Assembly (NCBI RefSeq): GCF_054482595.1
Contig: NZ_CM137008.1
DNA length: 64,000 nucleotides
Strand: one strand, 5' to 3'
A program made the position numbers and the translations under genes. The first letter of the stretch is position 1. Each line of letters starts with the position of its first letter. Shown here piece by piece: positions 45,694 to 49,769 of this stretch. The notes under the pieces were generated by a model. It saw only the letters and a list, made by a program, of their open reading frames with translations. It had not been told where the DNA came from and made no database searches.

Positions 45694-46455
45694 TTACCGC
45701 CACATCGCGTGTTTATCGCGATAGCAATCGACCCACATCGCCGTCGCGCCACAAACGGCAACGGGCATGATGAACAGATTAAGCAGCGGGATCATCGTAA
45801 ACAGGCTGGTTAAAGCACCAAACTGCATATTGGTGATTTTGCGTGTGCGCAGGGCGGTGCGCATCTCTTTAAACGGCACTTTGTGGTTATCGAAGGGGTA
45901 ATCGCAATACTGGATGGCTAACATCCAGGCGCTAAACAGGAACCACAGTACCGGCGCGACGGTTTGCCCAATACCAGGGATGAAGTAAAGAATTAGTAAT
46001 ACAATTGCGCGTGGCAGATACCAGGCAAATTTTTGCCATTCGCGTTTCATGATTCGCGGCACATCTTTCATGATACCGAAAATCCCGGTATCTGGCGGTG
46101 TAGCGCCAGTCAATCGTGCTTCCAGTTGTTCAGCCAATAAACCGTTGAACGGAGCGGCAATCCAGTTAGCAATCGTGGAGAAGAAATAGCCAAACACTAA
46201 CAGCACAGAGATGACAGCCAGAGGCCACAACAGATAGCTCAGCCATTGTAACCAGTCCGGAACATAACTCATGAGAGTCGGGATCCAGACATCGAGTTGC
46301 GTAAAGAGCCACCAGAATGCGCCCCCCATCAACAAAATATTGACCAGCAGCGGTAAAATAACGAAACGCCGAATCCCAGGTTGCGAGACGAGCTTCCAGC
46401 CTTGCGCAAAATAGTAAAAACCGCTGCGTGGGGCAGATGTGAATGATGAAACCAT
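45694..46455 (-). CDS. cysZ: Sulfate transporter CysZ (inner membrane)
   Basis: 253 aa, hydrophobic; upstream of cysK on the same strand. Confidence 0.9.
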
Positions 46456-46684
46456 AATCAGGATGAGCTCCTTTTGACCAATCCCAGGAAAATTGTGCGT
46501 ATTTTACCGGGTAATTGCGCAATGGACAGTTAGGATATGTTCGAAAAAACAGCAAAAAGCACGATTTCATCTATCTTTGTGCTGTGAAAGTTAATAGTGC
46601 ACTTGCACTTGAGGTAATCGGCAAATACTCTTAGTGAGTAAATGTTTGCCGTGGTGGCAAGGTGTTAGAACAACAGAGAATATA

Positions 46685-47683
46685 ATGATGCAGGATTTGC
46701 GTCTGATATTAATCATTGTTGGCGCGATCGCCATAATCGCTTTACTGGTACATGGTTTCTGGACCAGCCGTAAAGAACGATCTTCTATGTTCCGCGATCG
46801 GCCATTAAAACGAATGAAGTCAAAACGTGACGACGATTCTTATGACGAGGATGTCGAAGATGATGAGGGCGTTGGTGAGGTTCGTGTTCACCGCGTGAAT
46901 CATGCCCCGGCTAACGCCCAGGAGCATGAGGCTGCTCGTCCGTCGCCGCAACACCAGTACCAACCGCCTTATGCGTCTGCGCAGCCGCGTCAACCGATCC
47001 AGCAGCCGCCTGAAGCGCAGGTACCGCCGCAACATGCTCCGCGTCCAGCGCAGCCGGTGCAGCAACCCGTGCAGCAGCCTGCCTATCAGCCGCAACCTGA
47101 ACAGCCGTTGCAGCAGCCAGTTTCGCCACAGGTCGCGCCAGCGCCGCAGCCAGTGCATTCAGCACCGCAACCGGCACAACAGGCTTTCCAGCCTGCAGAA
47201 CCCGTAGCGGCACCACAGCCTGAGCCTGTAGCGGAACCGGCTCCAGTTATGGATAAACCGAAGCGCAAAGAAGCGGTGATTATCATGAACGTCGCGGCGC
47301 ATCACGGTAGCGAGCTAAACGGTGAACTGCTTCTTAACAGCATTCAACAAGCGGGCTTCATTTTTGGCGATATGAATATTTACCATCGTCATCTTAGCCC
47401 GGATGGCAGCGGCCCGGCGTTATTCAGCCTGGCGAATATGGTGAAACCGGGAACCTTTGATCCTGAAATGAAGGATTTCACTACTCCGGGCGTCACTATC
47501 TTTATGCAGGTACCGTCTTACGGTGACGAGCTGCAGAACTTCAAGCTGATGCTGCAATCTGCGCAGCATATTGCCGATGAAGTGGGCGGTGTCGTGCTTG
47601 ACGATCAGCGCCGTATGATGACTCCGCAGAAATTGCGCGAGTACCAGGACATCATCCGCGAAGTTAAAGACGCCAACGCCTGA
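46685..47683 (+). CDS. zipA: Cell-division protein ZipA (N-terminal TM anchor, charged region, P/Q-rich linker, C-terminal FtsZ-binding domain)
   Basis: Starts [26 protein letters not shown] at ATG 46685; P/Q-rich low-complexity linker about 46900-47230; the track ORF start at 46634 is an extension. Confidence 0.9.
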
Positions 47684-47712
47684 TACACTTAAGGCAAATT
47701 AACTCCTCTTCG

Positions 47713-47737
47713 AACCCCCGCTTGTCGGGGGTTTTTA
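47713..47737 (+). terminator. Rho-independent terminator after zipA
   Basis: acccccg-cttgt-cgggggt followed by TTTTT. Confidence 0.6.
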
Positions 47738-47744
47738 GCATTGA

Positions 47745-49769
<2,025 letters not shown>

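Follow-up and report, generated by a model that had tools for sequence, protein, structure and literature searches.

A common length allele of the proline/glutamine-rich tether of Escherichia coli ZipA and the overlapping reading frames produced by its composition

Over positions 46820-47290 of the window (the whole 64,000-nucleotide stretch of contig NZ_CM137008.1 analysed here), open reading frames are stacked on both strands on top of zipA, and the ZipA encoded there differs in length from that of E. coli K-12. This raises two questions: are any of the stacked frames genes, and is the difference in length an error, a novelty of this strain or an ordinary variant? The overall explanation favored here, with little doubt left about it, is that this is the P/Q tether of zipA, that the frames arise from its composition, and that the protein is a common 332-aa length allele.

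The identity of the gene is straightforward. The zipA coding sequence occupies 46685-47683 (+), 332 codons and a stop by its reading frame and translation, and opens with ATGATGCAGGAT (MMQDLRL...). The product scores 416.3 bits against TIGR02205 (the NCBIfam equivalog septum_zipA, “cell division protein ZipA”; cut-off 119.65, E 9.5e-125), covering profile positions 1-284 of 284, and residues 198-321 match Pfam PF04354 (ZipA_C) at 156.8 bits (cut-off 23, E 3.2e-46). The PDB ZipA chains 1F46, 1F47 and 1F7W match residues 189/193-332 with E about 1e-90. The gene order is cysZ-zipA-ligA (window ORFs 45694-46455 (-), 46685-47683 (+) and 47754-49769 (+)), a layout annotated in the same way in four RefSeq E. 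coli genomes. Positions 46685-47683 encode ZipA, an ordinary E. coli cell-division protein; the feature is already known, and the window holds an ordinary allele of a well-studied gene.

K-12 ZipA is a protein of 328 aa with a membrane anchor at residues 7-28 and an unstructured P/Q domain at residues 86-185 (PMC6904479), and the window protein can be divided along the same lines. Its translation has a hydrophobic run starting at residue 7 and followed by RKER, with the bulk of the protein lying after this single N-terminal helix; the anchor (residues 7-28, 46703..46768, +) is identical to that of K-12, and a bitopic N-out, C-in orientation is predicted. The charged region (residues 29-85, 46769..46939, +; limits from PMC6904479) is also identical to K-12. 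It is followed by the P/Q-rich linker (residues 86-189, 46940..47251, +), which is recognized by composition and contains all of the E. coli length differences, and by the FtsZ-binding domain at the C terminus (residues 190-332, 47252..47680, +), defined by PF04354 and the PDB chains. From its 100% identity to the K-12 domain and from the literature (PMC8669495), we infer that this last part binds the FtsZ C-terminal peptide and is needed in division. The intrinsically disordered tether joins the anchor and charged region to the domain that binds this peptide.

The preliminary description had called the DNA of the linker repetitive and CAG/CCG-rich over 46900-47230, an interval that corresponds to ZipA residues 73-182 and thereby to most of the P/Q linker. 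The part about composition stands: CAG (18) and CCG (16) are the commonest linker codons, residues 86-189 are 31% P and 25% Q (56% P+Q) with 15.5% A, and the interval is 66% G+C and only 13% T. “Repetitive” is true only loosely. The linker DNA is not a tandem array, because Tandem Repeats Finder (TRF) reports none in 46600-47750 even with a minimum score of 30; a repeat search yields four degenerate copies (76-82% identity) of a 17-nt motif coding QPxQQP, at 46991-47007, 47051-47067, 47063-47079 and 47102-47118 (+). A tandem-repeat contingency locus of the microsatellite kind was also considered and rejected: there is no TRF array, the four motif copies are dispersed, and all of the indels are in frame.

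How does this linker compare with that of K-12? The zipA gene of K-12 MG1655 has 987 nt and encodes 328 aa (WP_001300494.1), against 999 nt and 332 aa in the window, so the K-12 length given in the preliminary description was right. The alignment that it proposed returned unequal rather than equal lengths and placed the suspected indel in the linker: in both DNA and protein alignments the sole length difference is one 12-nt gap, and the rest is colinear. The 12 nt absent from K-12, GTGCAGCAACCC, lie at 47057..47068 (+; the placement within the repeat is ambiguous) and encode V125 Q126 Q127 P128. They are directly followed by GTGCAGCAGCCT at 47069-47080, which matches them at 10 of 12 positions; the VQQP segment is a second adjacent copy of the QPVQQP-coding motif, and its length equals the 12-nt spacing of QPxQQP copies 2 and 3. 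Beyond these four extra linker residues, two substitutions set the window protein apart, I105 in place of V and R120 in place of H; otherwise the two proteins are closely alike: same gene, same cysZ-zipA-ligA locus, same domain order, 99% protein and 98.0% DNA identity, with the anchor and the FtsZ-binding domain identical. A still closer match is the 332-aa ZipA of E. coli O157:H16 Santai (WP_040234854.1), whose 999-nt gene is 100% identical throughout, from the same annotated start to the same stop.

The 332-aa form is not confined to these two strains. A full-gene search found zipA in 5,425 of 5,426 complete E. coli genomes; among 40 evenly spaced sampled rows, the match spanned 999 nt in 17, 987 nt in 22 and 888 nt in one. 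A 101-nt probe across the indel (window 47015-47115), searched against the same 5,426 genomes, separates the two main classes. At 95% identity or more there are 2,376 records (881 + 1,495), up to 64 of them with only partial coverage of the probe, which gives an ungapped count of 2,312 to 2,376; the 26 rows sampled from this class all lack a gap. The 80-90% identity class has 3,036 records, and each of the 33 rows sampled from it spans 89 nt, the length of the probe less the 12-nt gap. The 332-type is present in about 43-44% of the genomes, and the textbook “328 aa” of K-12 fits only about 56% of them. About 47 further genomes have a near-full-length zipA with a partial match or no match to the 101-nt probe, and these would represent additional linker alleles.

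Two much shorter alleles also occur. In ML775 (E. coli O103), zipA has 903 nt and encodes 300 aa (WP_032345459.1), lacking 96 nt between two copies of CGCAGCCNGTGCA. The genomes in which a 47-nt junction probe (20+7+20 nt by design) locates this allele number exactly 30; their sources are humans, cattle, flies and food, and the allele appears to mark a clonal lineage in which a short tether is fixed. The genomes that carry it are about 5.3-5.6 Mb, and years read from strain names only run from about 1999 to 2013. In EM10-18-28, zipA has 888 nt and encodes 295 aa (WP_171876907.1). Here 111 nt are missing between QPxQQP copies 1 and 4, a length that equals the spacing of these two copies, and the repeat at the junction is CAGCAGCC; a junction probe finds this allele in one genome among the 5,426, and its 67-residue linker is the shortest seen. 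Both are the same gene as in the window, with identical anchor and FtsZ-binding domain; relative to the window allele, their linkers are shorter by 32 or 37 residues. Every indel observed keeps the reading frame, lies within the linker and is bounded by short direct repeats. The length variation raised as a possibility in the preliminary description is therefore real, with alleles of 295, 300, 328 and 332 aa in E. coli. We found nothing specific in the literature on natural or engineered variation in ZipA linker length.

Some of the records that carry zipA are filed as plasmids. Most of these are 1.4-4.9 Mb and are clearly chromosomes or pieces of chromosomes. In one of 50 kb (NZ_CP098226.1), zipA spans 992 nt, 7 nt too few and not divisible by three, which suggests a chromosomal fragment with indel errors.

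The linker also varies among species. A degenerate DNA pattern for a conserved peptide retrieved at least 120 species-representative loci, and 103 of these gave a full-length ZipA. Among the matches listed, these 103 Enterobacteriaceae species have a ZipA of 307-353 aa (median 330) and a linker of 75-123 aa (median 100, standard deviation 8.6 aa) with a median of 55% P+Q. The standard deviation of length is 1.8 aa for the anchor plus charged part and 1.1 aa for the FtsZ-binding part, and mean identity to the window protein is 81% and 86% in these parts and 57% in the linker (all among the matches listed). Nearly all of the variance in ZipA length among the listed species matches sits in the linker, and the window linker of 104 residues is unremarkable. 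The remaining linkers of the two short E. coli alleles (72 and 67 residues) are shorter than that of any of the 103 species representatives, where the minimum is 75.

Which of the two common forms came first? One reading is that the 332-aa form is a recent duplication in the lineage of this strain and that the 328-aa form of K-12 is ancestral. With 10 of 12 positions matching, the adjacent 12-nt units are as similar as one would expect after a duplication, and the 328-type is the majority class. Against this, the copies have already diverged at two synonymous sites, so that the event was not recent; the 332-type is found in roughly 2,300 genomes, including O157:H7 and ST131 strains; and three other lineages of Escherichia carry the motif in two or three copies there. 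The indel site reads QPVQQPQPVPQS in E. albertii, QPVQQPQPVQQP in strain SCPM-O-B-8794 and QPVQQPQPVQQPQPVQQP in Escherichia sp. E1V33. These three have two to three QPVQQP copies, the window has two adjacent copies of this type and K-12 has a single one, which makes the K-12 type the shortest of the genus. The phylogroups of O157:H7 and ST131 strains are E and B2, both remote from that of K-12. A recent duplication is on balance unlikely. Because it is the shortest in the genus and because the 332-type occurs in phylogroups distant from K-12, the single-copy form of K-12 is probably a derived deletion, with no gain of a copy in this strain. This polarity is based on three outgroup sequences in which the repeat period is 6 aa, against a 4-aa offset in the window allele, and given that difference independent expansions may have occurred at the site. 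As for SCPM-O-B-8794, its record (NZ_JAATUR010000016.1) is labelled E. coli, and its ZipA of 320 aa has a linker that resembles that of Escherichia sp. E1V33 (326 aa) and not that of typical E. coli; the E. coli label may hide a cryptic lineage of Escherichia.

Whatever the direction of the 12-nt change, the junctions hint at how such alleles could form. The tether carries short degenerate direct repeats coding QPxQQP, and in-frame gains and losses between these repeats would give rise to the length alleles. To judge from the junction repeats, such gains and losses most likely arise by replication slippage or by short-homology recombination. The alleles would persist if the linker is a spacer whose exact length matters little, being tolerated because a tether of this kind has no fold to disrupt, and on this basis we infer that they are functionally near-neutral. 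The tether has been described in print as flexible, but “no structure to disrupt” may be too simple, given that the P/Q region in lipid particles is argued to be more compact than a free tether (PMC6904479). Viable lineages that are missing a third of the tether fit a picture in which the P/Q region acts as a spacer and its length is loosely constrained. A parallel can be drawn within the division ring itself. The disordered C-terminal linker of FtsZ is a low-complexity spacer of variable length that separates a folded domain from an element through which the ring is bound or anchored. By analogy, it would work in the same way as the ZipA linker; it belongs to a different protein and its sequence is unrelated.

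The second question concerns the stacked frames. The preliminary description had reported many overlapping ORFs of 60-110 aa on both strands and had put them down to the low-complexity linker. Four alternative-frame ORFs were found across 46820-47286: 112 aa at 46820-47158 (-), 101 aa at 46902-47207 (+), 101 aa at 46911-47216 (-) and 66 aa at 47086-47286 (-). All four are judged spurious by their codon composition and the absence of a Pfam match. The account of their origin runs as follows. The tether is made up almost entirely of Pro (CCN), Gln (CAG/CAA) and Ala (GCN) codons, which makes its DNA C-rich and T-poor; stop codons are therefore rare in four of the five other frames, leaving mechanical ORFs of 66-112 aa. 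Shuffling bears this out. Permuting the order of the linker codons, which preserves both codon usage and protein composition, gave alternative-frame open runs of which the longest averaged 148 +/- 20 codons, against 112 observed; 76% of shuffles had at least four frames open over at least 60 codons, as the actual sequence does. The outcome was no different when synonymous codons were redrawn, with open runs that were equal or longer. Nor are long alternative-frame ORFs confined to the linker, as ligA has an antisense ORF of 213 aa.

It is hardly credible that, on either strand of 46820-47290, at least one of these frames is a genuine gene, overlapping or antisense. The attraction of the idea is that ORFs of 66-112 aa with start codons are present in four alternative frames, but in 93% of trials shuffled linker codons give a longest run that equals or exceeds the observed one, and the four translations, which are low-complexity strings of Arg/Leu or Ala/Gly/Cys, have no Pfam match at E up to 0.1. 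A promoter scan finds no promoter-like site on either strand in 46400-47800. Furthermore, the natural deletions of 96 and 111 nt remove at least a third of three of the ORFs in viable strains, and about 12% and 37%, respectively, of the 66-aa ORF. The alternative-frame ORFs over 46820-47290 are by-products of composition and not genes, as had been proposed.

The length of 332 aa depends on where translation starts. In the mechanical list of ORFs, the zipA frame runs from a GTG at 46634, and translation from this codon would give a protein of 349 aa. Such a start is improbable in the extreme: the ATG at 46685 is preferred because RefSeq places the start there in the identical 999-nt gene as well as in related zipA genes, because the N-terminus M(M)Q[DEN][LM]R is present in the 103 species representatives, and because the profile and structure alignments fit the shorter form (TIGR02205 aligns from residue 4 of the 332-aa protein, and PDB chain 9IUE, a full-length ZipA of 328 residues, from residue 1). 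The preliminary description had favored the same codon. Finally, the idea that the length difference is a sequencing or assembly artefact, to which low-complexity regions are prone in the form of indel errors, is refuted, as the difference is exactly 12 nt and in frame and over 2,300 independent complete genomes contain the same sequence without a gap, one of them 100% identical over 999 nt.

Two features of the flanking intergenic DNA can be recorded here. Between zipA and ligA, at 47712-47736, there is a strong, G+C-rich hairpin with a T run behind it (GAACCCCCG CTTGT CGGGGGTTTTT), separated from the zipA stop by 29 nt and from the start of ligA by 18 nt. Its folding energy is -15.5 kcal/mol (z = -2.4), and it looks like an intrinsic terminator or attenuator between the two genes; a consensus terminator scan of 46400-47800 missed it, probably because the stem extends into the T run. 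On the other side of the gene, between cysZ and zipA, the scan marks a short palindrome at 46596-46609 (minus-strand sequence AGTGCAAGTGCACT) as terminator-like on the minus strand, at a rate no higher than in shuffles.

For annotation, these findings mean that the correct start of zipA is 46685, that 332 aa is a normal allele and not an error, and that the ORFs stacked over 46820-47290 are to be ignored. For the biology of the division ring, a bolder proposal can be made from the same sequences: the QPxQQP part of the tether would be a recurrent hot spot for in-frame indels, and linkers of 67, 72, 100 and 104 residues would differ measurably, within one species, in the spacing from membrane to Z-ring or in the timing of division. 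This proposal is a long shot. If it were true, the 300-aa allele, fixed in a lineage represented by 30 human, bovine and food isolates, would be a natural experiment on tether length.
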